Translations under genes and position numbers: made by a program
From: an uncultured Acidobacteriota bacterium
GTDB taxonomy: Bacteria; Acidobacteriota; Thermoanaerobaculia; Multivoradales; UBA5704
Assembly: GCA_963770895.1 (NCBI GenBank)
Contig: CAVYRF010000001.1
Span: forward strand, 1,728,001 to 1,792,000
DNA: 64,000 nucleotides
Direction of reading: 5' to 3'
The notes under the pieces: generated by a model
The model's input: the letters and a program-made list of their open reading frames with translations, nothing else
What the model was told of the DNA's origin: nothing
Databases searched by the model: none
Shown here: piece after piece, positions 22,443 through 51,932 of the stretch
Layout of the letters: each line of letters begins with the position of its first letter
How positions within the stretch are numbered: position 1 is the first letter of the stretch

Positions 22443-22703
22443 CAGAGCGCAAGCTCAGGCGCCGCGAGCCGCGCTGCGGCGGCGGCTCGTCCGGATGCCG
22501 AACCATCCTCCGCGGAGCGCAGTGCGCATTGCACACTGCGCAGGTGGCGCCCCGGGGCTCCGGCTTGCTCAGGTCGTGCTTGACAGCTGCACGGCTTCAA
22601 GAGATACACTTAAGCATCATTCGCGCAGCTTGAAAGCCATTGCACCCGCCGGTCGCGAGCCCATCTGGTGCCGATCGGTTGCCAGGCGGTGAGGAGTCAT
22701 CGA

Positions 22704-23948: not shown

Positions 23949-23999
23949 GCCCGCGGACCCGACACCAGGCCCGCGGCGATCGCACTTCGAGGGGACAGC

Positions 24000-34113: not shown

Positions 34114-36354
34114 TCAACCGGCCACATCGATGGGCGCTTGCTGTCTCAGGGTGATCAACCCATGGCCGGCGAGTTTCTTGAGGTACCGCACCAGCCTCTC
34201 CACCTGCGGACTCTCGATGCTGCGCAGCAGATCGTCCAGCACGACCGGCTGGGGCGACTCCGTCAGCAACCGGTAGACCAGCGGGTCGAGGCAGATGCAC
34301 TTGGCACCCGCCATGCTCCAATATTTCCGCTGCCGTCCCGGCGCCAGGTTGGGCCGCGCCTCGGCCCACTCCTGAAACGAGCGGAGCGTCGGCTCGCGCG
34401 GCGTCTTGTCGAGCTGGCGCAGGTATGACGCCATGCTCTGGCGTTCTTTGATGATCTTGGCAAGATCGAATGGCGTATCGCGAACCACTCCCCGCGGTAC
34501 CACCACGCAGCCGTGCAAACCGGCATCGGCAATCTCGGTGCCATCGTCGCTGGTTTGTTGCAAATCGCGAAAAAAACGCCGTCCGTAATGATCGAAATAG
34601 ATCATGCTGTGCAGGCTGTCCACCCCTCCCGCCCAGGGCCTGCCCAGCAGGGCAGGAAAGACTCCCCCACGGTCTTCGAAGGAGGCATCCCGGTCCTCGG
34701 TGAGCAGCGTGCGCCCCTCGGCCTCGCCCGCTGCCTGTCCGTCCATCTCGTAGCCGGGAGCCCGTTCGATGTCGGCATCCTGCTTGTCGATCAACCGCAG
34801 TCCGAAACGCGAGGGGTCGCGGGCGACAATGGCCGACCCGGTGAGCTGGAAGGTCCCCATCCCGCCGGCGGACCAGAACCCGTCGTGCTCGCGGACGAAG
34901 CGCAGGGTCTCCTCTTTTTCGGCTGCGGTTTCCGACGGGAAGCCGCTGAATGTCATCAGCTGCACCGCCACTCCGGCGCCGGCAAAGTTCTTCATGGTCT
35001 CGCCCATGAAGGCAACCTTGGTGCCCTTGTCGATCAGATCGAGGACGCGCTGGTTGCCCGACTCCATGCCGAACGACACGCAGACGCAGCCGCTCTTCGC
35101 CAGCTTCTTGCAGCGCTCGGCGGAGAAGACCCTTTCCATGCGCAGCTCGGCGCCCCAGCGGATGTCCAGGCCGGCATCGACGATCGCATCGGTCAGGCGG
35201 TCCAGGTAGGCGGGCGACATCACGTCCACTGCGAAGTACACATAGCGGGTGTGGGTCGCGCCGACGATGTGAGCCAGATCCTCGATCACTTGATCCACGC
35301 CGCGCTCGCGCCACGGCGATGTCGGCTTCGAGGTGTTCAACCCATAGTCGCAGAAGGTGCAGCGATTCCAGTAGCAGCCGCGGGTCGGCGAGTAGTTGAT
35401 GCCGCGCTCCGGTGCCAGGTAGAGCTCCCATGGATAGCGGTAGAGGGGGCGGCCCAGCTGGGGTACGTTTTCATAGTGGATGTGCTGCGGCAGGAAGAGC
35501 TTCCCAGACCGTTTGTCGAAGGTGATCAGGTTCTGCACCCTGGCGCCAGGCACGACGCCGCCCGCATCGGCAATCTCGCACAGCGCAGTCTCGCCTTCGC
35601 CGACCACGATGCCGTCGCAGACGGCGAAAAAATCGGCCATGCGCTGCTTGTCTTTCATGTACTTGTAGAGCTGACTGATGGAGGTGCCGCCGAACAGCAC
35701 CTGCTTGGCAGGCCAGGCCTGCTTCACCCAGCGCGCCAGGTGCAAGGCGTGGAAAATCTGATGATCGTAGGCGACGCTGATGCCGACGCAATCGGCGGAG
35801 GAGAATTGCTCGTCCGCCGCCAGGCGCCCATCGAGGAAGCGGTCGAAGACCTGGCAGATCCTGCCGCCCAGGATCGGATCGAATAGATCGCGCAGATTGT
35901 AGGGTGAAAAGCGGCCGCGATTTGCCAGCCTGAAAGTGGTCAGCTCGCTCGGATAGCCGAGCGCTCCGAGCATCTCCATATAATCAGAGAGATCTGTTTG
36001 GTAGCGCTGGTAGTCTGGAAACGAAAGAAAGCAGCGGCGGTCACGCATCCCGGCGGCGGCGTGTCGAAGATCGTCATACCGCACCCGCCGCTGGCGCCAG
36101 AGTGCCAGATATTCTTCCTGCTCGGCAAAGCTGAGCGCAGCCTGGCGCTCGAAGGCGCTCAGCCGTCGCGCGGCCTCCTCGTAGAAGGCTGCGACGTTCT
36201 GCTCTTCCAGGGCCCAGTTGACCATCTCGATGTTGACGTCGCGGATCACCACGTCCGCAAACCCGGAATGAACCAGATGGCCGGCCAGGTAGGCGGTGGC
36301 GTGGTACGGCAGCGTCGGATCGTCGAGCGGAGGATGGGCCAACAGGATCTTCAT
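34114..36354 (-). CDS. B12-binding-type radical SAM enzyme, copy 1 (putative RiPP maturase)
   Basis: HPPLDDPTLPY N-terminus; Rossmann-like VGIS...FGG...IVVGEGE; RGCYWNRCTFCDY CxxxCxxC; FGMESG. Confidence 0.85.
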   Translation of the reverse strand: MKILLAHPPLDDPTLPYHATAYLAGHLVHSGFADVVIRDVNIEMVNWALEEQNVAAFYEEAARRLSAFERQAALSFAEQEEYLALWRQRRVRYDDLRHAAAGMRDRRCFLSFPDYQRYQTDLSDYMEMLGALGYPSELTTFRLANRGRFSPYNLRDLFDPILGGRICQVFDRFLDGRLAADEQFSSADCVGISVAYDHQIFHALHLARWVKQAWPAKQVLFGGTSISQLYKYMKDKQRMADFFAVCDGIVVGEGETALCEIADAGGVVPGARVQNLITFDKRSGKLFLPQHIHYENVPQLGRPLYRYPWELYLAPERGINYSPTRGCYWNRCTFCDYGLNTSKPTSPWRERGVDQVIEDLAHIVGATHTRYVYFAVDVMSPAYLDRLTDAIVDAGLDIRWGAELRMERVFSAERCKKLAKSGCVCVSFGMESGNQRVLDLIDKGTKVAFMGETMKNFAGAGVAVQLMTFSGFPSETAAEKEETLRFVREHDGFWSAGGMGTFQLTGSAIVARDPSRFGLRLIDKQDADIERAPGYEMDGQAAGEAEGRTLLTEDRDASFEDRGGVFPALLGRPWAGGVDSLHSMIYFDHYGRRFFRDLQQTSDDGTEIADAGLHGCVVVPRGVVRDTPFDLAKIIKERQSMASYLRQLDKTPREPTLRSFQEWAEARPNLAPGRQRKYWSMAGAKCICLDPLVYRLLTESPQPVVLDDLLRSIESPQVERLVRYLKKLAGHGLITLRQQAPIDVAG

Positions 36355-36396: not shown

Positions 36397-36975
36397 CTAC
36401 TCCTGCCTGGCAAGCCTGGCGGCCTGCGCAGCCTGGTGCTCGGCGACGAGCGACTTGAGCTTCGGCCACATCTCCTTGTAGGGGCAAAGGGAGCTGTTGA
36501 GGAACCGGCCGGCGGCCGCCGACCAGCCCCTGCCCAGCGGCAGCATGCAGGCGCCGAACTCGACCAGCCGGGCTACATTGGCGCGCACCGCCGGATGCGC
36601 CCACATCTCCGGCGCCATCGCCGGGCCGAAGGCGACCGGCCCGGTGAAGCTCAGATAACAGTGGGCGAGCAGCGTCTCCGCCGAACCTCCGGCGCAGCGC
36701 GCAAGGGTGGTGGCGCTGGCCGGTGCGACCAGGAAGAGATCGATGTCCTTGACCAGTTCGGGCGGGGAACGCATCGGACGCGGGTCGGACCACGGATCGA
36801 CATGCACGTCGACGCGCACCATGGCCTCGAGCGCCTGCGGATTGACAAAGCGAGCGGCGGCTGACGTCATGACCACCCGCAGCTCCTCGACCTCGGGCTC
36901 GGCCCGGAGGTTGATCAGGTAGGAGTGGATGTTAAGGACGCCGATCGAGCCGCTCACGCCGACCAGGATTCTCAT
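36397..36975 (-). CDS. EpiD/LanD-like HFCD flavoprotein
   Basis: ILVGVSGSIG, APASATT, PAMAPEMW; stand-alone 192 aa with no CoaB domain; adjacent to a Cys-terminal peptide. Confidence 0.82.
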   Translation of the reverse strand: MRILVGVSGSIGVLNIHSYLINLRAEPEVEELRVVMTSAAARFVNPQALEAMVRVDVHVDPWSDPRPMRSPPELVKDIDLFLVAPASATTLARCAGGSAETLLAHCYLSFTGPVAFGPAMAPEMWAHPAVRANVARLVEFGACMLPLGRGWSAAAGRFLNSSLCPYKEMWPKLKSLVAEHQAAQAARLARQE

Positions 36976-37053: not shown

Positions 37054-37197
37054 TCAACAGCCGCCGTTGTTGTTGATATTGGTTTCTTCGTCTGAGGATG
37101 CCGCGCCGCCCGAGACATCTTCCAGCACGGTTTCGTCGATCTCACCGCTGCCAGCGTCCTCGAGTTCCTTTGCAACGTCTTCCGGTTTCTGGTCCAT
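37054..37197 (-). CDS. RiPP precursor peptide 1 (47 aa)
   Basis: MDQKPEDVAKELEDAGSGEIDETVLEDVSGG|AASSDEETNINNNGGC; AAGGAGG RBS; double-glycine leader. Confidence 0.88.
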   Translation of the reverse strand: MDQKPEDVAKELEDAGSGEIDETVLEDVSGGAASSDEETNINNNGGC

Positions 37198-37280: not shown

Positions 37281-38756
37281 CTACTCGACGCCAGCCGCGG
37301 CGGTCTCGCCGTGCAACGGCACCGATGTCGATTCGCTTCGCCCCTCGACGGCGTCGATCAGTTCGAACTTGGCATTCCGGCGCAGCGGCGAGCACGGCGA
37401 ACTGCCGGTGTCCATGCGGATCTGCGGGCAGTAGACACCCTGGCAAACCGGCAGGATGGTGCACTTCCGGCACTTGGGGTCCTGCTCGAAGGCCGGTTCG
37501 GTCCACAACGCAAGCTTGTCCTGATCGAGCTCCATGCGACCGTCGGGGCGGAGGTAGCCCACCACGTTGCGGTCGTGCTTGTCGAGGTCGACCGTGCACT
37601 TCATCACCTTGCCGCTCGCCCCGATCAGGAAGTTGTAAGGCCGCGCCGCGTAGCAGACGTGCGAGCCCAGGCCCACTTCGGTGATCCCCGAGGCAAGGCT
37701 GAGGCCGCGCCGCTGGGCCTCCTTTTTCATCTCGCGTTCCATGCTCCAGGCGTCCTCGACGCCGCAGACCGCAAGGCTGGCGTCGTTCGGCCCACCCCAC
37801 TTGCCGACGGCGTAGAAGCGCATCTTGAAGCGCGGATCGCCGCCGAGCTCGCGCTCGATGATGTCGAGAAAGCCGCGGTAGCTCATCACGTTGTTGCGGT
37901 CGAAGTTGAAGCGCAACATGACCGTGAAGTCCTCGCTGCGGCGTGACAGCGCCTTGAGGTTGGCGAGGATGGTGCCGAAGGTTTCCTGGCCGTCGCGGGT
38001 GGGTCGAGTGCGGTTGTGGTCCTCCGGCACTCCGTCGATGGTGATCTGGAAAAACGCCACTTCCCAGGCCAGGAGCCGCTCGGCCACCTCCGGTGTGAGC
38101 AGGAAGGCGTTGGTGGTCATGTTGCTGGAGAAGCGGACCGAGTGTTCGCGGGCGATCGCCTGGAAGAACGGCGCGAGGTCCTCGATGGCCTCGAAGCCGT
38201 AGAGCGGCTCGCCGCCGAACCACGCCACCGACAGAGAGCTGAGCGAGCGGATGCGCGATTCGGTCAGCTTCTTGATGGCGGTGCGCACCGCCGGCTGCAT
38301 GGTGCCGCGGGCGAAGTCCTCGTAGCAGTAGGTGCAGCGGAAGTTGCAGTCTTCGGAGGCGAGGAGGATGAGTTGCAGGATGTCGGTGCGGTACTGGGCC
38401 TGGCCGAATTCGAGCTGGATGCGCCGGTATTCGTCAGTCCCCTCCTGGACCAGGAAGCCACGCTCGTAAAGGAGCTTGACGGCGCCCCGCCGTGCCGCCG
38501 TAAAACCCTTCTGCGTCAACAGGGTCTCGATCTTACGCCGGACTGCGACGGGGAAGACGCTCATCGTGCCGCGCAAGCTGTTCCACAGCACCAGACGGCC
38601 GTCGGTGGTGGTGGCGCGGGTGTTGTAGCGCGAGGGCACCCACCGCGTGGCGCCGGCCTCGGCCATCGCACTCCCTCCGGCGGGCACCGAGGGGATCTCC
38701 GTGTCGAGAGGAGATCGCACCAGAATGGGAAGCTTATCGCCGAGGCCGAGACTCAT
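37281..38756 (-). CDS. Radical SAM/SPASM peptide maturase
   Basis: RRE-like N-term (SRYN...LVLWNSLRG...GFLV); CNFRCTYCY; WFGGEPL; SPASM cysteines CYAA..KC..KCRKCTILPVCQGVYCP..C. Confidence 0.9.
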   Translation of the reverse strand: MSLGLGDKLPILVRSPLDTEIPSVPAGGSAMAEAGATRWVPSRYNTRATTTDGRLVLWNSLRGTMSVFPVAVRRKIETLLTQKGFTAARRGAVKLLYERGFLVQEGTDEYRRIQLEFGQAQYRTDILQLILLASEDCNFRCTYCYEDFARGTMQPAVRTAIKKLTESRIRSLSSLSVAWFGGEPLYGFEAIEDLAPFFQAIAREHSVRFSSNMTTNAFLLTPEVAERLLAWEVAFFQITIDGVPEDHNRTRPTRDGQETFGTILANLKALSRRSEDFTVMLRFNFDRNNVMSYRGFLDIIERELGGDPRFKMRFYAVGKWGGPNDASLAVCGVEDAWSMEREMKKEAQRRGLSLASGITEVGLGSHVCYAARPYNFLIGASGKVMKCTVDLDKHDRNVVGYLRPDGRMELDQDKLALWTEPAFEQDPKCRKCTILPVCQGVYCPQIRMDTGSSPCSPLRRNAKFELIDAVEGRSESTSVPLHGETAAAGVE

Positions 38757-40122: not shown

Positions 40123-41364
40123 ATGATTCCCTACTTTCTGAACCTCGGCCAGAGCATCGAACGGGCCTGGCTGGCGCGGGGCTACGACGAAGAGGTGTTC
40201 CCTACGCTGGCGGTGGATCTCCTGGCGGAGAATCCACCGCAGCAGCATGTCGGGACGGCGGATGTCGTCGATTGGGTCTTCGGTACTTCCCACCCCTTTT
40301 TGCAGCCCGCTGGACGCGCCTTTTTCGGCGAGCCGCCGGTGCTGGTCTACCAGGGGCCGCGGTTCTATATCGAAGTTCTGTTCTGGATGGCGGCGACCAC
40401 CTCCATCCACGAGCATGGCTTCAGCGGCGCTTTCGCGGTCCTGGCCGGATCGAGCGTGCACAGCCACTGGCGTTTCGCGCGCGAGCGGACGATCAATTCC
40501 CGCCTGCTGTGCGGCCGGCTGGAGCGCGTGTCGACCGAGATCCTGCGGCCCGGCGCCATCCGCCAGATCGACTCCGGCAGCCGGCTGATCCACCAGCTTT
40601 TCCACCTGGAGCTGCCGTCGGTCACGATCGTCGTGCGTACCTATTCCGATCGCAAACATCAGCCGCAGTATCAGTACCTGCCGCCGGGACTGGCGATCGA
40701 CCCCGAGGACCACGACCCGCTGCGGGCGCGGCGCCTGCTGCTGCTCGACAACATGGCCCGCGGCCGGCTTCCGGGCCTGCCGGAGTACGCCGGCAGGCTC
40801 ATCGCCGTCGCCGATCCGGAGACGCTGTGGCAGATGTTCTCGACCTTGACCCGCCGCAAGGTGGACCGCGGCCTGCTCGACGGCCTGTTCCGGCTTGCCC
40901 GCGACCGCCACGGCGACGTGGTGGACCTGTTCCGCCGGGTGTGCGAAGACGAGCGGCGCACCCGCGTGGTGACCGCGCTGCGGGAAAAAGTCGTCGATCC
41001 GCAGGCGCGGTTCCTGCTGGCGCTGCTGATGCTGATGCCCGATCGCGACGCGATCGTCGAAACCGTGCAGCAACAGTTTCCCAACCTGCAGCCGGTGCCG
41101 GCGATCGAAACCTGGGTCGCATCCATGGCCGGCAAGGAAACCATCGGCTTTCACCTCACCGACCTCAACCGCCTCATCTTCCGCGGCCTGGTGGAAGGTG
41201 TCGACGCGGATGGCCTCTTGCAGCGGTTGCGGACCCAGCTCCAGGACGGCGCCGCCACCGATCCCGAGCACGCGCTCGACCACGCCAAGCGCATGGCGCG
41301 GCTGGACCTGTTCTATCCGTTGTTTTCACGTTCGCCGCTGCGCGAAGCGGCGCGGATGGCCTGA
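40123..41364 (+). CDS. Hypothetical protein with a cupin (thiol-dioxygenase-like 3-His) domain
   Basis: TTSIHEHGFSGAFAVLAG and distal LIHQLFH; helical C-terminal half. Confidence 0.6.
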   Translation: MIPYFLNLGQSIERAWLARGYDEEVFPTLAVDLLAENPPQQHVGTADVVDWVFGTSHPFLQPAGRAFFGEPPVLVYQGPRFYIEVLFWMAATTSIHEHGFSGAFAVLAGSSVHSHWRFARERTINSRLLCGRLERVSTEILRPGAIRQIDSGSRLIHQLFHLELPSVTIVVRTYSDRKHQPQYQYLPPGLAIDPEDHDPLRARRLLLLDNMARGRLPGLPEYAGRLIAVADPETLWQMFSTLTRRKVDRGLLDGLFRLARDRHGDVVDLFRRVCEDERRTRVVTALREKVVDPQARFLLALLMLMPDRDAIVETVQQQFPNLQPVPAIETWVASMAGKETIGFHLTDLNRLIFRGLVEGVDADGLLQRLRTQLQDGAATDPEHALDHAKRMARLDLFYPLFSRSPLREAARMA

Positions 41365-41470
41365 ACGGCCGGCGGGCTACGGGCGAAGGGGCGGCGTCCT
41401 GCGATGGCGTGCCGGTGCGACGCCCCCGGCCCTGCTGTGTACAACCAGACGGGCCAGGGGCACCGGGAGC

Positions 41471-41584
41471 TCAGTTGGGATTGTTGATGATGTTGTTGTT
41501 GTCGTCCGGCTTCGCATCGCCGCCCGACACGTCTTCCAGAACCTCGTCATCCAGCTCTGCACTCTTGGACTTCTCGTCGGCCAT
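41471..41584 (-). CDS. RiPP precursor peptide 2 (37 aa)
   Basis: Hand translation MADEKSKSAELDDEVLEDVSGG|DAKPDDNNNIINNPN*; AAAGGAG RBS; same LEDVSGG leader as peptide 1; below the ORF-track cutoff. Confidence 0.88.
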   Translation of the reverse strand: MADEKSKSAELDDEVLEDVSGGDAKPDDNNNIINNPN

Positions 41585-41676
41585 GGGATGGCTCCTTTGG
41601 GTGAATACCTCCGTTCAACATGAACGAAGGCCGTCATCAGCGTGGTTGCTATCCGCCATTGCAAGGTCAGGCGGGC

Positions 41677-44001
41677 TCATCTGGGCGCCGCCACCATCGG
41701 CGCGGGATCGGAACCCGGTTCCGAGTGTCGCGGCGTCCACCCCTGCCGGGGCCCGCGGGATCTCCCGGCAGCCGTCGGCATTGCCGCCTTCTGCGACGCC
41801 GTCAATACGATCAGGCCTTGCGCGGCGAGCCGCCGGAAGTAGCGCAGGAACCTGGCGGCCTCCGGCTGGTCGACACGGCCGAGCAGCTCCCGCAGCGTGA
41901 CCGTCTGCGTCTCGGTCGCCGCCAGCAGCTGGTAGACGAACGGATCGATCCGCACACACTTGGCGCCGGCCATCGCCCAGTAGCGGCGTTGCGGGCCGGC
42001 TGCCAGCGCGGTGCGGCCGGCAGCCCATTCGCGATAGGCCTGCTGCGTCGGTTCGCGCGGGACCTTGGCCAGCGCCGCCAGATAGGACGCCATCTGTTTG
42101 CGTTCGCGCAGGATCGTGGCCAGGTCGTACGGTGAGTCCCGCAGCACCCCCGGCACCCCGACGGCGCACGCCAGCAGCTGCTCGTCCGACATCGCATCGT
42201 CGGTGTCGAGGTTGTCGCGGAAAAAGCGCCGGCCGTAGAAATCGTAATAAATCATGCTGTGCAGGCTGTCGGTGCCGCCGGCCCAAGGTCTTCCCAGCAT
42301 CAGGGGAAAGATGTTGCCGCGGGCGTCGAACGAAGCGTCGCGGTCTTCGGTGAGCATCGCCTTGCTCTCTTCGCCCCGCGCGTCGTCTTCCAGCTCGTAG
42401 GCCGGCGCCCGCAGCACGTCGACGTCCTGCTTTTCGATCAGGCGCACGCCGAAGCGGCCGGGGTCCTTGGCGACGATCGCCGTGCCGGTCAGCAGGAAGG
42501 TGCCGATGCCGCCGGTGGACCAGTAGTCGTCGTGGTCGCGGACGAAGCGATGGGTCTCCGCCTTTTCTGCCGCGGTTTCCGATGGGAAGTCGGAGAACGC
42601 CATGAGCTGGACCGCGACGCCGGCCTCCGCGAAGTTCTTCATCGTTTCGCCCATGAAGGCGACCTTGGTGCCTTTGTCGATCAGGTCCAGGATGCGCTGG
42701 CTGCCGGACTCCATGCCGAACGAGACGCAGACGCAGCCGCTGGCCGCCAGCTTGGCGCAGCGGTCTTGCGTGAAAACCTTTTCCAAGCGCATTTCCGCCG
42801 CCCAGCGGATGTCCAGATCGGCGGCGGCGATGGCGTCGGACAGCCTGTCCAGGTAGGCGGGCGCCATGACGTCGACGGCGAAATAGACATACCGGGCACC
42901 GGTTTCGCCAATGGCGCTGCGCAGGTCGTCGACCGCCTGGTCGACCCGGCGCTCGCGCCATGGGGAGGTCGGCTTGGAGGTGTTGAGGCCGTAGTCGCAA
43001 AACGTGCAGCGATTCCAATAGCAGCCGCGCGTGGGCGAATAGTTGATGCCGCGCGCCGGCGCCAGGTACAGGTCCCACGGGTAGCGGAAAAGCGGGCGGC
43101 CCAGGGCCGGCACGTTCTCGTAATGGATGCAGTCGGGCAGGTACAGCTTGTCCGCCGTGCGGTCGTACGAGATGAGGTTGTGGACCTTGGCGCCGGGCTT
43201 GACCTGCCCGGCGTCGGCGATCTGGCACAGCGCCGTCTCGCCTTCGCCGACGACGATGCCATCGCACATTTCGAAAAAGCGCCGCATCTGCTGCTTGTCG
43301 CGGATGTACTTGTAAAACTGGCTGATCGAGGTGCCGCCCAGCAGGATCTGCTTGTCCGGCCAGCGCCGCTTCGCCCACCGTGCCATGTGCAGGGCGTGAA
43401 ACATCTGGTGGTCGTAGACGATGCTGAGCCCCAGGCAGTCCGCGGCGGCGAGCTGGGCGTCGTCCGCCAGCCGCTCGTCGAGGAAGCGATCGAAGACCTG
43501 GCAGATCGTTGCGGTCAGGCCGGGTTCGAAAAGATCGCGGAAGTTGTAGGGCGAAAAGCGGCCGCGGCTGACCTGCCTGAAGTTGGTCACGTCGCCGGGG
43601 TAGCTGAGGCTGCCGAGCATGCTTTCGTAACGCAGCAAGCTCATCCGAAAGGTCTTGTACTCATCGAAAGCAAGGAAGGCGTCGCGATCGCGCAATCCGG
43701 CGAGCGATCGTTGCAGCTGTTCGTAGGAGACGCGATGCTGGCGCCAGAGGCCGAGGTACTCTTCCTGCTCCAGGAAGGACAGCGACCCTTTGCGTTCCAA
43801 GGCCTTCAACCGCCGGTCGGCCTCTTCGTAGAACGACGAGAAGACCGCTTCCTCGAACGTCCAATTCACCATCTCGATGTTGACGTCGCGGATGGCGACG
43901 TCGTCGAAGCCGCAATGCACCAGGTGGCCGGCGAGGTAGGCGGTCGAATGGTACGGCAACGTGGGATCGTCGAGCGGCGGGTGCGCGAGCACGATCTTCA
44001 T
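41677..44001 (-). CDS. B12-binding-type radical SAM enzyme, copy 2
   Basis: MKIVLAHPPLDDPTLPY; shares the block RGINYSPTRGCYWNRCTFCDYGLNTSKPTSPWRER with copy 1; AAGGAGG RBS. Confidence 0.85.
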   Translation of the reverse strand: MKIVLAHPPLDDPTLPYHSTAYLAGHLVHCGFDDVAIRDVNIEMVNWTFEEAVFSSFYEEADRRLKALERKGSLSFLEQEEYLGLWRQHRVSYEQLQRSLAGLRDRDAFLAFDEYKTFRMSLLRYESMLGSLSYPGDVTNFRQVSRGRFSPYNFRDLFEPGLTATICQVFDRFLDERLADDAQLAAADCLGLSIVYDHQMFHALHMARWAKRRWPDKQILLGGTSISQFYKYIRDKQQMRRFFEMCDGIVVGEGETALCQIADAGQVKPGAKVHNLISYDRTADKLYLPDCIHYENVPALGRPLFRYPWDLYLAPARGINYSPTRGCYWNRCTFCDYGLNTSKPTSPWRERRVDQAVDDLRSAIGETGARYVYFAVDVMAPAYLDRLSDAIAAADLDIRWAAEMRLEKVFTQDRCAKLAASGCVCVSFGMESGSQRILDLIDKGTKVAFMGETMKNFAEAGVAVQLMAFSDFPSETAAEKAETHRFVRDHDDYWSTGGIGTFLLTGTAIVAKDPGRFGVRLIEKQDVDVLRAPAYELEDDARGEESKAMLTEDRDASFDARGNIFPLMLGRPWAGGTDSLHSMIYYDFYGRRFFRDNLDTDDAMSDEQLLACAVGVPGVLRDSPYDLATILRERKQMASYLAALAKVPREPTQQAYREWAAGRTALAAGPQRRYWAMAGAKCVRIDPFVYQLLAATETQTVTLRELLGRVDQPEAARFLRYFRRLAAQGLIVLTASQKAAMPTAAGRSRGPRQGWTPRHSEPGSDPAPMVAAPR

Positions 44002-44372
44002 TTGCGACCTCCTTGGCGTTGCGTTCCGCCTGCCGTCGGAGCGAAGGATCTGCCGGGGCGTCTCCTTCGTCTCATGGTGCTTCGTATATGCCAACATTAC
44101 CCTATAACAGTGAGTAGTTGATACGCAATACAACGTACAAATGAAATCATGTTTAATACCTGACAGGGGTGGTCAGTTTATGGGACAAGCGCCCCAATTA
44201 CAGGCCGCGCCAGACTCTTTTCGCCGGGTTTTTGTGCTGCTCAATCTGTGCTAAGTGCCTTGTAGAAATCGATGCTTACGTAGTACTCTCTGTTTTGCGC
44301 GGTTTTGTGAGGCCGCGGGGCGCTGTCCTGGGCCTGGCAGGCCTCTCCTCGTGGAGCGCGGGACAAGGGCGA

Positions 44373-46151
44373 ATGGCACTGAACATCCTGGGGATCTCAG
44401 CGCACTACCACGATGCATCCTGTTGCCTGTTGCGCGACGGGCAGCTCATCTGCGCGGCGGAGGAAGAGCGCTTCTCCCGCGTCAAGCACGACAGCCGCCT
44501 GCCCTGGCGCTCTTTTCGCTTCTGCCTCGAACAGGGGGGCATCACCCTGCCCGAGGTCGACTGCGTCGCCTACTATGAAAATCCTGAAAAGAAGCTGTCC
44601 CGGCAGATCTGGATGGCCCTGCATCCGGATGCCTCCGACTCCATCCGCCGCAGCGTTCTGAGCCGGCTGCCGGATCGCGTCGACCGGGTCGAACGGCAGA
44701 TCCGCCACCAGCTCGGCTACACCGGCCGGTTGGAGCTTTTCGATCATCACCAGTCTCACGCCGCCAGCAGCTTTTTTTACTCCGGGTTCGAAGAGGCCGC
44801 GGTGTTGACCGTGGACGGCGTGGGCGAATGGGCGACGACCGCCTTCGGCGCCGCCGCCGGCGCCGCCATCGATCTGTTCGAAGAGGTCCGCTTCCCCAAC
44901 TCGCTGGGCATGCTGTACAGCGCCATGACCGCGTATCTGGGCTTTGACGTCAACGACGGCGAATACAAAGTCATGGGGCTCGCCCCCTACGGAGAGCCGC
45001 GCTACGTCGACCAGGTGCGCGCCCTGGTGACGCGGCAAGGGGACGGCCAGTACCGGCTCAACCTCCAGTATTTCGATTTCCTGCGGCGCAACCGGATGTA
45101 TTCGGACCAACTGGTGGATCTATTCGGGGCACCGCCGCGGTTGCCCGAGGCGGAGCTGCTGGCATTTCACCAGGACGTCGCGCGCAGCGTCCAGTGGGTG
45201 CTCGAAGAGATCCTGCTCGAAAAAGTGCACTACCTCCACGACCGGGTTCCCAGCCGCAACCTCTGCATGGCGGGCGGCGTCGCGCTCAACTGCGTGGCCA
45301 ACAGCCGCATCCTCCGCGACGGGCCCTTCGCCCAGCTGTTCGTACAGCCCGCCGCGAGCGATGCCGGCGGCTGCCTGGGCGCCGCCGCCCTGGCGCACGT
45401 GCGCCTGACCGGCGAGCGGCCGGCCCAGGGCCGCCTGGCCCACATGTACTGGGGCCCCGCCACGCCGGTCGAAGACGTCGCCGGCATGCTCGCCGGAACC
45501 GCGCTGCCGGCCCTCGACTTCCGCTGCCGGCCCGACGACCTGCTGCAGGCGACCGTCGAGCGCCTGGCGGCCGGCAAGGTCGTGGGCTGGTTCCAGGGCC
45601 GCATGGAGTTCGGACCGCGCGCGCTGGGGGCCAGGTCGATCCTGGCGGACCCGCGCGACGAAGGCATGCGCGACCGGATCAACGCCCTGGTCAAGATGCG
45701 CGAAAGCTTCCGTCCCTTCGCCCCGGCGGTTCTCGAAAGCCGGGCGCGGGATCACTTCGCCATCGACCATCCCTCTCCCTTCATGCTGGAAACCTGCCCG
45801 GTCAGCTCGCCGATCCATCTGCCGGCGGTCACCCACGTCGACCGCTCGGCCCGCCTGCAGACCGTCGACCCGGCGTCGAGCCCGCGCTTCGCCGCCCTCC
45901 TGGAGCGCTTTGCCGATCGCACCGGCTGCCCGATCCTGCTCAACACCTCCTTCAACGTCCGCGGCGAACCCATCGTCCGCACGCCGGAGGAGGCGCTGCT
46001 CTGTTTTGCACGCTCGGGCATCGATACCCTGGTCCTCGAAGACTTCGTCATCGACCGCCAATCGGTGCCGCCGGCCTGGAGCCAGCTGCTGCCGAAGCAG
46101 GAGCGACCCGGCGGGCCGAGGGTGAGCCACCAGGTGTACACGCTGCTGTAG
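44373..46151 (+). CDS. CmcH/NodU family carbamoyltransferase
   Basis: ILGISAHYHD, EEERFSRVKH, HHQSHAAS, DGVGEW, GEYKVMGLAPYG, AGGVALN, EFGPRALG, LLNTSFN. Confidence 0.93.
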   Translation: MALNILGISAHYHDASCCLLRDGQLICAAEEERFSRVKHDSRLPWRSFRFCLEQGGITLPEVDCVAYYENPEKKLSRQIWMALHPDASDSIRRSVLSRLPDRVDRVERQIRHQLGYTGRLELFDHHQSHAASSFFYSGFEEAAVLTVDGVGEWATTAFGAAAGAAIDLFEEVRFPNSLGMLYSAMTAYLGFDVNDGEYKVMGLAPYGEPRYVDQVRALVTRQGDGQYRLNLQYFDFLRRNRMYSDQLVDLFGAPPRLPEAELLAFHQDVARSVQWVLEEILLEKVHYLHDRVPSRNLCMAGGVALNCVANSRILRDGPFAQLFVQPAASDAGGCLGAAALAHVRLTGERPAQGRLAHMYWGPATPVEDVAGMLAGTALPALDFRCRPDDLLQATVERLAAGKVVGWFQGRMEFGPRALGARSILADPRDEGMRDRINALVKMRESFRPFAPAVLESRARDHFAIDHPSPFMLETCPVSSPIHLPAVTHVDRSARLQTVDPASSPRFAALLERFADRTGCPILLNTSFNVRGEPIVRTPEEALLCFARSGIDTLVLEDFVIDRQSVPPAWSQLLPKQERPGGPRVSHQVYTLL

Positions 46152-46181: not shown

Positions 46182-48212
46182 GTGCCGGAACAGCCTGACC
46201 ACGACCAGCTTTTGAAAGCGGTCGCCGACGCGACGGCGGGCCTGCTCAGCCAGGGCGACGGCGCCGCCGCCGTTCTGATCCTGGAGCGCCTGGGCCTGCT
46301 GAAGGCGGCGGCCAGGAAGACCGCCGCCGCCTCGCCCGGCACGATCGGCGTGTGGGAGGCCGGGCCGCAGGGGCACCAGCGTTCGGCCGCGCGGCGCGAC
46401 GACTGGCATTTCTGGGCCGATGTCCAGTCCATTCCGCCCAAGGGGGAGCGGCCGCGGGTGGCGCTGGTGGGCGAATCGGTGGCCCGCGGTTTTCTCTACG
46501 ACCCGGCGTTCAATCCGGCCCAGGCCCTGGAGGCTTGCCTGACGGCGGCCCTCGGACAGCCGGTCGAAGTGCTCGACCTCGCCAAGATCGACCTGCTGCC
46601 CCAGGAGCTCATGAGCCTCACCGAGGCGGCGACCACGCTGGCGCCCGACGTGCTGGTGGTCTTCGCTGGCAATAACTGGTTCATGCACGACCAGCGCGAC
46701 CTGCCGATCGAAGCGGCCGCCCTGCGCGAGCGGGGAGCTGCCGGGCTCAAGGAGCTGCGCGAGCAGCGCCTGGCCGCCTTTGCCGCCGGCACTTTCCGGC
46801 AGCTGCTCACCGAGCTATCCCAGCGCCAGCCGCTGGTGGTGGTGGTTCCAGAGATCAACCTCGCCGACTGGCGCCTGGATGCGGAAGCGGATGCGCCCTG
46901 GCTGCCGGACGGACGCAACCGCCTCTGGCTGGAATGCCGCGCGGCGGCCCGCGCCGCGCTGGCCGCCGGTCGCCTGGACCAAGCGGCGGCCCTGGCGCGC
47001 CAGATGATCGACCTGGACGGCGGCACCGCGGCTTCCGGCTGGACCCTGCTGGCCGACTGCGCGCGCGCCACGGCAGAGACGGAAACCGCCCGCGCCTGCC
47101 TTGAAAAGGCGCGCGACGCTCACACCTGGGACTACACCCACCAGACGCCGCGGATTCTCTCTCTCGCCCAGGGCGCCTTGCGGGACTGCGCGCTGCCCGG
47201 CCGCATCGCAATCGTCGACCTGCCGCGCTGTTTCGCCGCCTGGCGCCCCGGCGAGCTCCCCGGCCGGCGCCTGTTCCTGGACTACTGCCACATGAGCGCG
47301 GAGGGGATCCGCGTCGCCATGGCGGCGACGGCATTACAGGTTGCGACGCTGCTGGACGCCAGCCGGCCGCTTCCGGCGCTGGCGAGCGTGGTCGAAGCTG
47401 CCCCCGCCCCCGACGCCCGCATCGAGGCGGCGGCCCAGTTTGCCGGGGCGCTCCATTCCGCGCATTGGGGCCAGGTGAGCCCGTTCGTCTCGGCTCTCTG
47501 TCACCAGGCCGCCCAGACGTCCCCCGAAATCGCCCAGGCGATGCGGCTCTACCTGGAATTGCAGGTCCGGCAGGCGCCGGTGTGGGCCTGCGCGGCGGCC
47601 GGGCAGCTGGCCGACGTGGCGCCGCCTTTCCTGCGCCGCTACATCCTGCATCCCCACAAAAGGCTTTTCGACCCGGTGCTGCTGCCGGCCATCGCCGGCG
47701 CGCTCGAAGAAACCGGCCTGCCCACGCTGGCCTTTCTCACCGAGCTGCGCCAGCAGGAGAGGAGCCTTTCCAACCGTCCGCGCAACCTCCTGGACCCCTA
47801 CCATCGCGCGTCCTGGGCGGACCTCGACTGGCTGGACTGGCCCAACCATTTCTGCCGCGCCTACAGCCCCAGGTCGCGCTACCCCTGGGTTTCCCGCACG
47901 CCGCGCGACCTGGCGTTCACCCTGACCTGCCGGCGCCGGCACGCGGCCGGCCCCAGCGAGTGCCACCTGTCGATCAACGGCACCTGCGCCGGACGCCTGT
48001 CCCTCACCGCCGGCTGGAGCACCTATCGCTTCAGCGCCCCCGCGGCGCTGGTGCAGGCCGGAGTGAACTGGCTGGAGATCGACTGGCCTGCCGATCCTGC
48101 GGATGGCGAACAGGCGATCGGCAGCATCGCTCATCAGCTGGAGCTTCGCCGCTACACCCCGCTGCTTCCGGTCTTTGCGGAGATCTATTCGCTGACCGCC
48201 GTCGAGACCTGA
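46182..48212 (+). CDS. SGNH-hydrolase-like protein with a TPR-like insert
   Basis: LVGESVARG (block I-like), FAGNNW (block III-like), FLDYCH (DxxH, block V); GGAGGAG RBS. Confidence 0.55.
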   Translation: MPEQPDHDQLLKAVADATAGLLSQGDGAAAVLILERLGLLKAAARKTAAASPGTIGVWEAGPQGHQRSAARRDDWHFWADVQSIPPKGERPRVALVGESVARGFLYDPAFNPAQALEACLTAALGQPVEVLDLAKIDLLPQELMSLTEAATTLAPDVLVVFAGNNWFMHDQRDLPIEAAALRERGAAGLKELREQRLAAFAAGTFRQLLTELSQRQPLVVVVPEINLADWRLDAEADAPWLPDGRNRLWLECRAAARAALAAGRLDQAAALARQMIDLDGGTAASGWTLLADCARATAETETARACLEKARDAHTWDYTHQTPRILSLAQGALRDCALPGRIAIVDLPRCFAAWRPGELPGRRLFLDYCHMSAEGIRVAMAATALQVATLLDASRPLPALASVVEAAPAPDARIEAAAQFAGALHSAHWGQVSPFVSALCHQAAQTSPEIAQAMRLYLELQVRQAPVWACAAAGQLADVAPPFLRRYILHPHKRLFDPVLLPAIAGALEETGLPTLAFLTELRQQERSLSNRPRNLLDPYHRASWADLDWLDWPNHFCRAYSPRSRYPWVSRTPRDLAFTLTCRRRHAAGPSECHLSINGTCAGRLSLTAGWSTYRFSAPAALVQAGVNWLEIDWPADPADGEQAIGSIAHQLELRRYTPLLPVFAEIYSLTAVET

Positions 48213-48224
48213 CCCCTCCGCGGA

Positions 48225-50642
48225 TTACCGCGAACGCAGCGTCGCCGCGGTGTCCAGCCGCAAGGAGCGTCGCGAGGCGCCCAGCCCGGCCAGCGCCGCC
48301 GTCGCCAGCAGCACGACCGCCACCAGGCAGAACACCAGCGGATCGCGTGCGTCGATGCCGTAGAGCAGGCTGGCTAAAAAGCGCACCAGGACGAGCGCCG
48401 CCGCAAGCCCCAGCCCGATGCCGATCAGGGTCAGCCTGAGCGGCTGCGCCAGCAGCGCACCGAGCACCTGCCGCACGCTGGCGCCGAGCGCCACGCGGAT
48501 GGCGATCTCGCGCGTCCGCAGCGAGGCGTTGTAGGCGATGACGCCGTAGATGCCGAGGGTGGCGAGCAGCAGGCCCGCCGAGCCGAAAAACAGGAACAGA
48601 AAGTTGAAGAATCGGTTGCGCGCGCCGGCGCTCTCGACCAGATCGGTCAAGGCGAAGCTCTTGAGGATCGGCTGGTTGGGATCCACGGCGGCGATCTGCC
48701 GCTGCACCGCGACCTGCGGGATCTGCTGCGCGCCGGCGGTGCGCAAGACCACCACCATGCTGCTGTGCGGCAGCTGCAGGAAGGGAGCGTAGATCGCCGG
48801 CTCGGGGTCCGACTTGAGATCGGTGATGCGAGTGTCGCCCACCACGCCGACGACCTCGTAGGCCGTCTTGACGCTGCCGCGCACGGCCAGCATCAGGCGG
48901 CTGCCCAAGGGCTCGCGGTGGGCGAAGAAGCGGTCGGCCATGCGCTGGTTGATGACCACGACCGGTTGGGCGGCGGCGCCGTCCCGGTCGCTGACGTCGC
49001 GGCCCTTGATCAGCGGAATGCCCATGGTGTGGAAGTAACCGGGGGAGACGGCGCTGAACTGCGCGAAGACCCCGGCGGTCGGCGCCGCCGGGTCCGGCTT
49101 TTCAAGATCGAAGGCCTGGAGGTTGCGGCCGAAGGTTTCGAGCGGCACGCTGCTGGCGGCTGCCACGGCGCGCACACCCGGATAGGCCCGCAGCCGGTCG
49201 AGCAGCTGGGTGACGAACTGCACCCGGTCCGCGTCGCGGTCGTAGTGCTTGGGCGGTAGCGCGATCTCGATGCCGCTGGCACCCGCGGGCTGGAACCCCA
49301 GGTTCACCCCCTGCAGCCTGGCTGAGCTCAGCAGCATCAGGCCGGCGCCGATCAACAGGATGGTGGCGAGCGTGCTTTCGGCCATGACCAGGGCGGCGCG
49401 GAAGCGGCCGGCGCCGCGGCCCGACGAAGCTCCCGCCTGGTCCTTGAGGGCCTGCTGCACGCCGGCCCGCGCCATGCGCAGGCCCGGCGCCGCGCCGCAG
49501 GCGATTCCCGCCACCACCACCAGGCACAGGGCGAAGGCCAGCACCCATGGATCCACCCGGATCGTGCCCGCCAGCGGCAGCAGGCGCGGATTGCTGGCGA
49601 GCGCCGCGTGCAGCCCCCAGCTCGCCAGCGCCACGCCGACCACGCCGCCGGCCACCGCCACCACCAGGCTCTCGACCAGGAACAGCCGGAACAGGCTGCC
49701 GTCGCCGGCGCCGAGCGCGATGCGCAGCGCCGTTTCGTGACCCCGCGCCGCGGCCCGCACCAGGAACAGGTTGGTGACGTTGGTGCAGGCGATCAGCAGC
49801 ACCAGCAGGGCGGCGCCGAACAGCAGCAGCAGCGCCGGCCGGACCCGCCGCACCGTGCTGTCGCGCAGATCCTGCACGTCGCAGGACCAACCCCGGTTGG
49901 AGACCGGGTAGGCCGTCTCGAGATGCCGCGCCAGGGCGTTGATCTCCTGGCGCGCCTGGGCCAGCGAGGCGCCGGGCGCCAGCCTGCCGACGACCTGAAG
50001 GTAGTGGCTCTGGCGGTCGTCGGCGCCGCCGGGCGCCGGCAGCGCCAGCCACAGCTCGGTCGCCGCGCTGGGGAAGGCGAAATCCGCCGGCATGATGCCG
50101 ACGACGGCATAGGCGTCGTCGTCCAGCCGCAGGACCTTGCCGAGGACCGCCGGATCGCCGCCCAGGCGCCGCCGCCAGAACTCGTGGCTGACCACCACCG
50201 CCCGCGCCTGGCCGGGTTCCTGGTCTTGCGGCAGGAGCGTCCGGCCGCGGTCCGCCGCGGTGCCCAGCAGGTGGAACAGCTCGGGAGATACGGCGGCGAT
50301 GGGCACCGCCAGCGGCTCCTCGCCCCGCGTCCAGTTGGCGTTCCGGCTGGTGGCGGCGGCGAGCCCGCTCAGCGTGCGCAGCTGAGCACGGTAGTCGTAG
50401 AAGTCGCCAAGCGCCAGGCCGGCGCCCTCCAGCCCCCGCTCCAGGTTGGCGGCGCTGACCTGCACCAGGCGGTCGGCGTCCCGGTAGGGGAGGGGCCGCA
50501 GCAGCACGGCATACACGACGCTGAAGATCATCGTGCCGGCGCCAATGCCCAGCGCCAGGGTGGCTACCGAAACCAGGGAAAAGCTGGGCCGCTTGCGCAG
50601 CGCGCGGAAGGCTATCCGAAGTTCGCGAAGTACCGCCGCCAT
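48225..50642 (-). CDS. Duplicated MacB/FtsX-type ABC permease (ADOP-like)
   Basis: ALRKRPSFS..TLALGIGA, LLIACTNVTNL, E.ALRIALGA, REIAIRVALGA; no cognate ATPase adjacent. Confidence 0.88.
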   Translation of the reverse strand: MAAVLRELRIAFRALRKRPSFSLVSVATLALGIGAGTMIFSVVYAVLLRPLPYRDADRLVQVSAANLERGLEGAGLALGDFYDYRAQLRTLSGLAAATSRNANWTRGEEPLAVPIAAVSPELFHLLGTAADRGRTLLPQDQEPGQARAVVVSHEFWRRRLGGDPAVLGKVLRLDDDAYAVVGIMPADFAFPSAATELWLALPAPGGADDRQSHYLQVVGRLAPGASLAQARQEINALARHLETAYPVSNRGWSCDVQDLRDSTVRRVRPALLLLFGAALLVLLIACTNVTNLFLVRAAARGHETALRIALGAGDGSLFRLFLVESLVVAVAGGVVGVALASWGLHAALASNPRLLPLAGTIRVDPWVLAFALCLVVVAGIACGAAPGLRMARAGVQQALKDQAGASSGRGAGRFRAALVMAESTLATILLIGAGLMLLSSARLQGVNLGFQPAGASGIEIALPPKHYDRDADRVQFVTQLLDRLRAYPGVRAVAAASSVPLETFGRNLQAFDLEKPDPAAPTAGVFAQFSAVSPGYFHTMGIPLIKGRDVSDRDGAAAQPVVVINQRMADRFFAHREPLGSRLMLAVRGSVKTAYEVVGVVGDTRITDLKSDPEPAIYAPFLQLPHSSMVVVLRTAGAQQIPQVAVQRQIAAVDPNQPILKSFALTDLVESAGARNRFFNFLFLFFGSAGLLLATLGIYGVIAYNASLRTREIAIRVALGASVRQVLGALLAQPLRLTLIGIGLGLAAALVLVRFLASLLYGIDARDPLVFCLVAVVLLATAALAGLGASRRSLRLDTAATLRSR

Positions 50643-50715: not shown

Positions 50716-51903
50716 TCATGCCGGCGGCACGCCGGCCGCCTGCTGCGGCCGCCAGCCGCAGGTGCGATCGTACGCGGCCGCGAGACGCACCGGAGCGCTG
50801 GCGTCCGCCAGGTCTTCCAGGCGCAGCGTGGCGAGCGCGGCGATGACCAGGGCGCGGTCGCGCGGCGTCGCCAGCGGCGGCCGGCGGTCGTCGTCGAAGC
50901 GTCCCAGGTTGGCTGCCGCGGCATGGACCAGCGCCCGCAGCACGGCAAAGGCGCCGTCCGACAGCGGCGGCGTGCCGCGATACACCTGCAGGCGGCCGGC
51001 CGGCCGGTAGCGCGGGAAGTCCTCGAGGCCCAGGAAGCGCAGCAGCCAGTCGGGACGGAAGCGGCCCAGGGCCGAGCCGATGCCGACAAAGTCGGCGATC
51101 AGCTCGTCGAGCAGGTTGTTGCGCATGACGCCGAACAGCCGGCGGGTGAAGTAGTGCGCTCCTTCGTGCTCGCGGCGGATGGCGAGCGACAGCTGCCGCC
51201 ATCGGCCGCCGTCCACGCCCAGCTGCTCGGCGGGCACGGCGCTGTACGGGCCGTCGCTGAGCAGGATGAGACGGTCCTGGTAGAGGTCCTTTTGCGGCCG
51301 CAGCCGCTCCATCTCCGCGGCCCAGGAGGCGGTCGCCCGCAGCGCGGCGGGCGTCGCCTCCCATGCCCGGCGCAGCTCGTGGAGCCGCGCCCAGTTGACG
51401 TAGCCGGAGATCATCTGGGCGCCCATCGCCTCGGGCACCGGCCACGGCTCGTTGCGCCGGCTGAGCGCCTGGACCAGCAGCACGAAGTCCTGGCGGCAGC
51501 CGGCGACGAGCAGGGGGATCCTGCCGGCGGGGCTCTGGTGCAGGACGATCTGCAACCGCTCCGGGGCGCTGAGCGTCAGGCCCTGGCCGCCCGGCGGCGG
51601 GTCGGGCGCCACGCCCTGCCGCGTCGCCGCCAGGTAGGGAGCGGTCTGGCTGATGCCCGCGGCGACGGGGAAGCGCAGCTGCGGCAGCTTGGCGCGCAGC
51701 ACCGCGAAGCTGCCGCGGTCGGCGGCCTCCAGGACACAGCTCTCCCAGAAGGCGATGAACGGTTCGTCGGCCAGGGGCAGCCGCGGCGCCGCGAAGATCG
51801 CCTCGCTGGCGAACAGGTTTTCGTTGTAGGCCAGGAGCTCCGCCACCTCGCCGGCGGCGGCGCCGAAGGTCGTCAGGGTGCCAGCTTGCCGAGCTTCAGC
51901 CAT
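50716..51903 (-). CDS. Hypothetical protein with an HExxH motif (DUF7005-like)
   Basis: LILLSDGPYSAV, IRREHEGAHYFT..DELIAD. Confidence 0.65.
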   Translation of the reverse strand: MAEARQAGTLTTFGAAAGEVAELLAYNENLFASEAIFAAPRLPLADEPFIAFWESCVLEAADRGSFAVLRAKLPQLRFPVAAGISQTAPYLAATRQGVAPDPPPGGQGLTLSAPERLQIVLHQSPAGRIPLLVAGCRQDFVLLVQALSRRNEPWPVPEAMGAQMISGYVNWARLHELRRAWEATPAALRATASWAAEMERLRPQKDLYQDRLILLSDGPYSAVPAEQLGVDGGRWRQLSLAIRREHEGAHYFTRRLFGVMRNNLLDELIADFVGIGSALGRFRPDWLLRFLGLEDFPRYRPAGRLQVYRGTPPLSDGAFAVLRALVHAAAANLGRFDDDRRPPLATPRDRALVIAALATLRLEDLADASAPVRLAAAYDRTCGWRPQQAAGVPPA

Positions 51904-51932
51904 CGCTATAGCATATGGTGGAGAGAGCGAGC

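Follow-up and report, generated by a model that had tools for sequence, protein, structure and literature searches.

Several described systems share parts of the architecture reported here. Double-glycine leaders usually carry hydrophobic residues at positions −4, −7 and −12; among the peptides that bear them, class II bacteriocins have a cationic or amphipathic character. In two-peptide lantibiotics, for example haloduracin, two precursors come with their own paralogous modifying enzymes and a common exporter. MgmA is a B12-radical S-adenosylmethionine (SAM) glutamine C-methyltransferase of methyl-coenzyme M reductase, and all peptide-modifying class B radical SAM enzymes known to us are methyltransferases. 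In the proteusins (polytheonamide, aeronamide), a ribosomal precursor with a leader ending in Gly-Gly (GG) and an Asn-rich core meets class B radical SAM enzymes and the NHLP export system. Two of these enzymes, PoyB and PoyC, are reported to be the probable source of C-methylation at Met, Gln, Ile, Thr and Val of polytheonamide (PMC5682303). Here we analyzed a 64,000-nt stretch of an uncultured Acidobacteriota genome (contig CAVYRF010000001.1; hereafter the window, whose positions serve as coordinates) and, within it, a minus-strand gene of 37 codons, pep2, which the original prediction had described as a hidden second precursor. The pep2 peptide is probably a real precursor of a ribosomally synthesized peptide with post-translational modification (RiPP), which would be modified by the neighboring radical SAM enzyme and exported after cleavage behind the GG. 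It is best read as a self-standing precursor, a sibling of a second peptide in the window (peptide 1), and not as an obligate second component.

The product of pep2 is a 37-aa peptide, MADEKSKSAELDDEVLEDVSGGDAKPDDNNNIINNPN, which divides into leader and core as MADEKSKSAELDDEVLEDVSGG/DAKPDDNNNIINNPN. A strong ribosome-binding site had been noted, and AAGGAG was indeed found 7 nt before the ATG; moreover, GAAAGGAG or AAAGGAG precedes the start codon in all five DNA copies of the gene, namely the window and the loci L001, L003, L004 and L010, which formed the DNA orthologue set. The core composition noted originally was borne out as well, with six Asn in the C-terminal nine residues (NNNIINNPN) and no Cys, Ser, Thr or aromatic residue among the 15 residues after the GG. 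Asn is encoded by AAC five times and by AAT once, and the G+C content at third codon positions is 0.79 in a window of 70% G+C. The gene is absent from the open reading frame (ORF) track, as had been pointed out, but merely through a 60-aa length cut-off, and the exact 37-aa protein is already present in a public protein collection (P0001).

A word-indexed protein search with the pep2 ORF extended to 47 aa found two relatives, P0002 (core AALPEDNNNNNNNNHRPR) and P0003 (core VVSPDDNNNNNNNNHLQ). A profile, A2, was built from seven aligned pep2-type peptides, in all of which L11, V15, L16, V19, G21 and G22 are invariant. Against 1.84 billion protein cluster representatives it gave 28 matches at E ≤ 1e-3, ten of them at E ≤ 1e-10. 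All 28 representatives are 33–59 aa long and contain [LS]EDV[STA]GG; 25 of the 28 cores hold at least four Asn in a 7-residue window, and 21 an Asn run of three or more. Asn accounts for 34% and Asp plus Glu for 15% of the core residues, and Cys occurs in only one core. When A2 was compared with 26,102 six-frame fragments from the window and 79 other loci, the five orthologues scored E values of 1e-17 to 1e-21, and below these and peptide 1 only weak matches (E ≥ 0.02) appeared. Pfam and NCBIfam hold no model for pep2-type peptides; the sole NCBIfam matches of pep2 fell below their cut-offs (XyeA triceptides, 13.9 versus 33 bits; RaxX, 13.9 versus 40). No locus identical to the window was found among the 79 retrieved.

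The 12-codon leader block L-D-D-x-V-L-E-D-V-S-G-G showed 66 synonymous versus 12 non-synonymous codon differences over the ten pairwise comparisons of the five orthologues, its Ser codon appearing as TCG, TCA, TCC and TCT. This indicates that selection acts on the protein, and the pep2 leader is under purifying selection. A chance ORF in an intergenic region might have been suspected, given the shortness of the frame and the many spurious ORFs that high-G+C genomes yield; conservation, selection and synteny exclude it, so that we give this explanation practically no weight and regard pep2 as almost certainly a real gene.

The synteny was examined in DNA around relatives of the enzyme encoded upstream of pep2, where 241 pattern matches yielded 207 confirmed ones and 79 loci were kept. 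A pep2-type gene was detected by A2 in the window, L001, L003, L004 and L010 only among these places, and in all five it begins 47–92 nt past a gene for an enzyme of ~770 aa. The original prediction would have been abandoned had the peptide not been conserved next to radical SAM homologs; it proved to be conserved directly behind the radical SAM gene at every one of the five loci. This arrangement also bears on whether the peptide is modified at all. A GG leader whose positions −4, −7 and −12 are V, L and L, a C39 exporter and a core lacking Cys, Ser, Thr and aromatic residues would suit a double-glycine bacteriocin or signal peptide that stays linear and unmodified, the upstream enzyme serving something else, and the complete C39 export set of the window could handle such a product. 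However, at none of the five loci does pep2 occur apart from a radical SAM enzyme, peptides with another leader but a similar core adjoin relatives of the same enzyme, and the pep2 core is short, acidic, polar and Asn-rich, in contrast to the cationic or amphipathic class II bacteriocins. We therefore consider an unmodified peptide improbable. The suggestion of a linear sibling product thus survives in part: a linear product is plausible, since ring-forming residues of any known kind are absent from the core, but an unmodified one is unlikely because of the fixed adjacency to the enzyme gene.

The proposed partner, B12-binding radical SAM enzyme 2, is 67% identical over 737 residues to enzyme 1, which accompanies peptide 1, and its start was placed at 44001 by this comparison. 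At least 690 relatives were found at E ≤ 1e-20 among 8000 candidates scored, the named ones belonging to Thermoanaerobaculia, Blastocatellia, Holophagales and other Acidobacteriota. The Pfam Radical_SAM domain scored 37.5 bits, above its cut-off of 29.5, and among NCBIfam models that of the RiPP C-methyltransferase family, TIGR03975, matched best; TIGR04014 (MgmA) also matched at E 2.3e-8 (33 bits versus a cut-off of 360). A Cx4Cx2C motif is invariant in all 24 aligned homologues. Sequence searches of the PDB with enzyme 2 found nothing by phmmer and only AprD4, at E 0.02, by profile. An AlphaFold model (predicted local distance difference test, pLDDT, 75.7; predicted template modelling score, pTM, 0.80) matched in Foldseek the class B radical SAM enzymes AprD4, TsrM, OxsB, MgmA, CysS and TokK (E 2.5e-10 to 1.6e-7). 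In the same model, the final ordered ~70 residues follow a beta-beta-alpha-alpha-alpha order resembling a peptide-recognition winged helix. Pfam searches with the C-terminal 135 and 235 residues gave no match at E ≤ 10, and we do not claim a RiPP-recognition domain, for which only the pattern in the model speaks.

Co-folding from the enzyme and peptide alignments gave a median score of 0.51 (runs 0.61, 0.51 and 0.51), compared with 0.01 for the best control, with a partner pLDDT of at least 50 and at least 48% of contacts agreeing between runs. The mark applied is passed by 116 of 157 solved complexes and by 2 of 215 mismatched pairs; scores of ≤ 0.60 comprise 18 of the 157 solved complexes together with both passing mismatches. 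The predicted complex thus lends weak support to the pairing of enzyme 2 with pep2.

Precursors were also searched for at 27 places of the enzyme family, namely L001–L026 and the window, and fell into several types distinguished by leader and core (Table 1). Besides the GG-leader peptides, a second family (type B) was recognized by the leader ..PEELEPRLELQVFVDPMG.., which has no NCBIfam model match; it accompanies more distant members of the enzyme family, at nine loci (L006–L009, L012, L013, L020, L022 and L024). Downstream of the type-B genes come those for the B12-radical SAM enzyme and an intramembrane protease of PqqD-HExxH type, and the protease gene stands directly upstream of the enzyme in eight loci (L006–L009, L012, L013, L020 and L022). 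This protease recalls the HExxH proteases of daptides; it scores 137.5 bits against the daptide protease model (cut-off 300) and so is not a member, and it is absent from the window. Two leader/protease systems therefore serve one enzyme family, and the carboxamide run, as the sole feature common to both peptide types, points to the target of the enzyme. Among all six-frame fragments of the 79 loci and the window, only 17 contain at least five Asn in ten residues, a rare composition in these G+C-rich loci; 14 of the 17 are candidate precursors, 12 of them in L001–L026 and the window and two in the actinobacterial loci L030 and L034. The enzyme family thus travels with Asn/Gln-run peptides. In a maximum-likelihood tree computed by a quick search from 29 enzyme sequences (29 of the 30 cluster members > 600 aa), in which the second copy of L016 and L023 were flagged as long branches, the GG-leader-linked enzymes and that of L005 form one branch with a Shimodaira–Hasegawa-like approximate likelihood ratio (SH-aLRT) support of 100, L006 and L024 being the nearest outsiders.

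Several side observations were made on these loci. In L015, the peptide at 5955..6098 ends in ...NNICPPGGC and lies upstream of an ATP-binding cassette (ABC) gene and the enzyme gene. L025 has only two distant Cys peptides, ~6 kb away; in the same locus two adjacent small minus-strand ORFs, 1474..1593 and 2242..2367, share an ..ELE[ED]RLEFFPKCTIN.. pattern and resemble another precursor pair. L007 is labeled ‘uncultured Clostridia bacterium’; its enzyme, peptides and ADOP gene group with those of the Blastocatellia locus L009 (SH-aLRT 100), and the contig may be mis-binned. Proteins with a lantibiotic-dehydratase C-terminal domain occur near enzymes of the same clade in L026 (1799..3199), L003 (6596..7633) and L005 (12423..13706), and the GG-leader peptides of L002 and L026 have Ser/Cys-Cys cores; from these, the enzyme appears to be combined with lanthipeptide-type machinery too. 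Actinobacterial enzyme relatives at ~36% identity (L047–L079, which include 23 Micromonospora loci of ~4.9–5.4 kb, and L033, L036, L030 and L034) are encoded ~2.6 kb downstream of long-leader GG precursors with cores patterned as VAPIADNNVNIIAVLIL; in L030 and L034 the core is NNVNNNLYQSK. These cores share a D-N-N-x-N-I-I stretch with pep2, and the precursors have weak NHLP similarity (17–21 bits versus a cut-off of 50.9).

The second precursor of the window, peptide 1, has the sequence ...EIDETVLEDVSGGAASSDEETNINNNGGC. On the minus strand the order is enzyme 2, pep2 and a hairpin, followed further down by a radical SAM/SPASM enzyme, peptide 1, an HFCD flavoprotein and enzyme 1. The near-match between the two leaders noted originally holds, as a leader regular expression run over the six-frame translation of the 64 kb retrieves these two ORFs only. 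No alignment of pep2 with peptide 1 was obtained by BLASTP, for which their shortness and biased composition account; the A2 profile did relate them, scoring peptide 1 at E 5.8e-7 among the 26,102 fragments. With the common leader and the paralogous enzymes, pep2 stands as a second precursor and sibling of peptide 1, as had been proposed. The core of peptide 1 ends in Cys, and since its gene sits between a SPASM maturase and a flavoprotein, with enzyme 1 beyond, this suggests that the Cys is decarboxylated or cross-linked on top of an Asn-tract modification.

These relationships would also accommodate a two-component peptide, of which pep2 and peptide 1 are the halves, each matured by its own B12-radical SAM paralogue: the near-identical leader ends lie within 8 kb, the enzymes are paralogous, the region has a single export set, and the cores align by eye as D-[DE]-x-x-N-I-x-N-N. 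The window resembles the haloduracin-type systems in having two precursors, paralogous enzymes and one exporter, although the enzymes belong to another class. What separates it from them is that the pep2 modules of L004 and L010 occur alone: over ~8 kb on each side of the module (~18-kb loci), neither has a peptide-1-type gene, a SPASM enzyme or a flavoprotein, and the pep2 family itself counts 28 representatives. Pairing is thus possible in the window organism but, judged by these ~18-kb loci, not general, and an obligate role for pep2 as half of such a two-component product is unlikely, if less so than an unmodified product.

Maturation of pep2 as a self-standing precursor would require removal of its leader, ELDDEVLEDVSGG, and export. 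To judge from the matches to family models, a complete double-glycine export set of NHLP type, C39 peptidase included, is encoded in the window: its HlyD, ABC1 and ABC2 genes each exceed the curated NCBIfam cut-offs, and the Peptidase_C39 domain at 54768..56981 was detected at E 1.1e-33. In L010, ABC2 adjoins the pep2 module, and in L011, L019 and L021 genes for HlyD, C39-ABC, ABC2 and DUF7005 stand directly upstream of the enzyme gene, mirroring the right-hand part of the window.

A G+C-rich hairpin follows the pep2 stop codon and is likely the transcript end, common to the convergent gene on the other side. Hairpins at the matching position of L001, L003, L004 and L010 have z-scores of −3.5 to −6.4. 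Scanning 41200..44400 returned no promoter-like site and one terminator-like site, which lies within the enzyme gene and falls below shuffle expectation; Rfam over 41000..42000 gave nothing meaningful (no match above E 0.3). In L001, L003, L004 and L010 an ADOP permease gene lies ~225–300 nt 3′ of the peptide gene, across the strong hairpin, and with the Asn codons close to the stop this would fit a regulatory leader peptide, in which stalling at the Asn codons controls the hairpin and hence the downstream ADOP gene. Such an attenuator is very improbable. In the window the next gene is convergent and none follows on the pep2 strand; purifying selection extends beyond the Asn run to the N-terminal leader, which is of the double-glycine kind; and the type-B peptides with similar cores lie upstream of the protease and enzyme genes, not of ADOP.

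Taking pep2 as a RiPP precursor, we propose the following route. The gene would be co-transcribed with that of enzyme 2, because the gap is 92 nt and contains no terminator-like site. The 22-residue double-glycine leader would dock the peptide on enzyme 2, which may modify the Asn tract of the 15-residue core repeatedly. By analogy with PoyB and PoyC, our best guess at the chemistry is repeated C-methylation of Asn side-chain carbons; if a modification occurs, C-methylation of Asn specifically is conceivable yet somewhat doubtful, and a different radical chemistry may apply instead. Together with the HlyD and TolC-like proteins, the C39 peptidase/ABC exporter would then cut after G22 and release a secreted, acidic, Asn-rich product of 15 residues.

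Several observations weigh against this route. Enzyme 2 reaches only 29.5 bits with the Pfam B12-binding model, below the gathering score of 32.1, and 81.9 bits with TIGR03975, whose cut-off is 281.85, so that on these scores it is not a member of the characterized methyltransferase family. Class B radical SAM enzymes also catalyze non-methylating reactions, and no precedent for radical C-methylation of Asn was found in the literature. The co-folding pass is a weak one. The export genes lie 10–18 kb from pep2 (C39-ABC at ~13 kb), and at this distance the exporter could mainly serve peptide 1. The hairpin of the window itself has a z-score of −0.77, not significant against shuffled sequence. 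Finally, no candidate peptide was found at 10 of the 27 places (L005, L011, L014, L016–L019, L021, L023 and L025), including L005, whose enzyme is of the same clade.

Compared with the proteusins, the pep2 system shares the GG-ending ribosomal precursor, the Asn-rich core, a radical SAM enzyme, putatively of class B, that among NCBIfam models comes closest to the RiPP C-methyltransferase family, and export genes passing the NHLM cut-offs. It differs in several respects. The pep2 leader has 22 aa instead of a nitrile-hydratase-like domain of ~80 aa, and neither NCBIfam (E ≤ 0.1) nor Pfam (E ≤ 10) gave an NHLP or Nif11 match. Neither an epimerase nor an Asn N-methyltransferase is encoded beside pep2, and its core, a short and hydrophilic run of Asn, is unlike a long Val/Ala/Asn channel-former. 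Enzyme 2 stays below the TIGR03975 cut-off, and its Cx4Cx2C motif contrasts with the Cx7Cx2C reported for PoyC (PMC5682303, PMC11285071). MgmA, a class B enzyme that methylates a carboxamide residue inside a polypeptide, ranks ninth among the matches of the enzyme 2 model (TM-score 0.54 on the target), but its substrate is a folded protein, modified at a single site and without a leader peptide.

Table 1. Positions of pep2, peptide 1 and the surrounding genes in the window, with precursor types and related genes at other loci of the enzyme family
Feature	Position or loci	Strand	Remarks
pep2 precursor gene	41471..41584	−	ATG..TGA, 37 codons plus stop
pep2 leader	41519..41584	−	residues 1–22, GG at end
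pep2 core	41474..41518	−	residues 23–37, DAKPDDNNNIINNPN
Ribosome-binding site AAGGAG	41592..41597	−	7 nt 5′ of pep2 ATG
G+C-rich hairpin, 15 bp	41418..41465	−	begins 5 nt past pep2 stop
B12-binding radical SAM enzyme 2	41677..44001	−	774 aa; 92-nt gap to pep2; proposed core modifier
Radical SAM/SPASM enzyme	37281..38756	−	TIGR04463-like, 190 bits versus cut-off 525
Peptide 1, sibling precursor	37054..37196	−	47 aa, core AASSDEETNINNNGGC
HFCD flavoprotein	36397..36975	−	CypD-like match, E 1.8e-7
B12-binding radical SAM enzyme 1	34114..36354	−	paralogue accompanying peptide 1
413-aa protein, no Pfam/NCBIfam family	40123..41364	+	convergent on pep2; kept in L004, L010
Carbamoyltransferase	44169..46151	+	beside enzyme in L004, L005, L010
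SGNH/TPR protein	46182..48212	+	beside enzyme in L004, L005, L010
ADOP-family duplicated FtsX/MacB-like permease	48225..50630 (start approximate)	−	822.5 versus 622.3 bits
DUF7005	50716..51903	−	adjoins window export set
DUF7005 in other loci	L011 6227..7393; L019 6188..7396; L021 6161..7303		
TolC-like outer membrane factor	51915..53537	+	69 bits, below TolC cut-off 225; Pfam OEP E 1.2e-30
HlyD-type adaptor, NHLP export system	53537..54775	+	TIGR03794, 344.5 versus 156.2 bits
C39 peptidase/ABC exporter (NHLM_micro_ABC1)	54768..56981	+	TIGR03796, 1073 versus 853 bits
Second ABC subunit (NHLM_micro_ABC2)	56995..59967	+	TIGR03797, 919.5 versus 709.4 bits
GG leader, Asn-run core	window, L001, L003, L004, L010		directly 3′ of enzyme gene
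GG leader, Cys-containing, Asn plus Cys core	window (peptide 1), L002, L026		
PEELEPRLELQ.. leader, runs of 6–13 Asn	L008, L012, L013, L020, L024		
PEELEPRLELQ.. leader, run of 13 Gln	L006		
PEELEPRLELQ.. leader, Asn/Cys cores	L007, L009, L022		NNC[C]RDGG[NT]C
Other leader, Asn/Cys peptide	L015		ends in PPGGC
Type-B precursors with Asn/Gln runs	L006 6060..6638; L008 6348..6524; L012 6304..6585		
Type-B precursors with Asn runs	L013 4703..4972; L020 6252..6515; L024 5970..6629		

Other genes recur around the enzyme family. An ADOP permease is encoded within the fetched flanks at 18 of the 27 places; a role in immunity or export is a guess. The window, L004 and L010 each combine, in three gene orders, genes for the carbamoyltransferase, the SGNH/TPR protein, the enzyme, the peptide, the ADOP permease and a 413-aa protein, and L005 has the carbamoyltransferase, SGNH/TPR protein and enzyme. 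A shared set of neighbors in varied order suggests a functional link, with the reservation that the organisms of the window, L004, L005 and L010 are closely related, and a connection of the carbamoyltransferase and the SGNH/TPR protein with the peptide is possible.

The 413-aa protein has at least 539 relatives, with His96, His98, His113, His157 and His161 invariant. Its model (pLDDT 85) consists of an N-terminal cupin resembling the thiol dioxygenases CDO, MDO and ADO (Foldseek E ~3e-6) and a helical C-terminal half. BLASTP found no kinship with DUF7005 or the type-B PqqD-HExxH protease, and the protein was rejected as a relative of either. In three distant Acidobacteriota (L011, L019 and L021), the gene for DUF7005 is flanked by NHLP-type export genes on one side and the B12-radical SAM gene on the other; DUF7005 has no relative in the PDB, and the Atlas holds its own family only. 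A DUF1684 gene also lies among or around the modules of the window. Two further gene groups on the plus strand seem unrelated to them: a ferritin-like protein followed by a LodA-type L-lysine epsilon-oxidase homologue (22668..26060), and a TPR-CHAT protein beside a zf-HC2 anti-sigma-like gene (17156..19897).

The pairing of a pep2-type peptide with its enzyme spans soil Acidobacteriota, and we found no description of it; literature searches, which did not cover subscription journals, returned nothing on Asn-run RiPPs, C-methyl-Asn formation by radical SAM enzymes or DUF7005. The architecture of leader, radical SAM enzyme and C39 exporter is classical; undescribed are the type of substrate, the clade of the enzyme and the connection with ADOP. 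A more far-reaching reading, somewhat less likely than not, would unite the pep2 family and its type-B cousins in an undescribed RiPP class, in which a dedicated clade of ~770-aa enzymes may work again and again along carboxamide homopolymers, with runs reaching 13 Asn or, in L006, 13 Gln. Either poly(C-methyl-Asn/Gln) peptides or the outcome of a new radical chemistry on Asn would result; the precursors would be served by two interchangeable leader/protease systems (GG with the C39 exporter, and PEELEPRLELQ with PqqD-HExxH), and the class would be tied to orphan ADOP permeases of Acidobacteriota.

To our knowledge, Acidobacteriota are abundant in soil, seldom cultured and chemically almost unexplored. 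Precursor genes of 33–59 aa behind radical SAM genes are easily missed through length cut-offs, a lesson for annotation. The Asn/Gln-run cores and their distinct B12-radical SAM clade offer a very clean substrate for learning the chemistry of the enzyme, and if it C-methylates Asn, or performs other chemistry there, a new post-translational modification would result. The recurrent adjacency to ADOP genes provides a first handle on a large family of orphan permeases, which, if the joint reading is true, could gain its first function.

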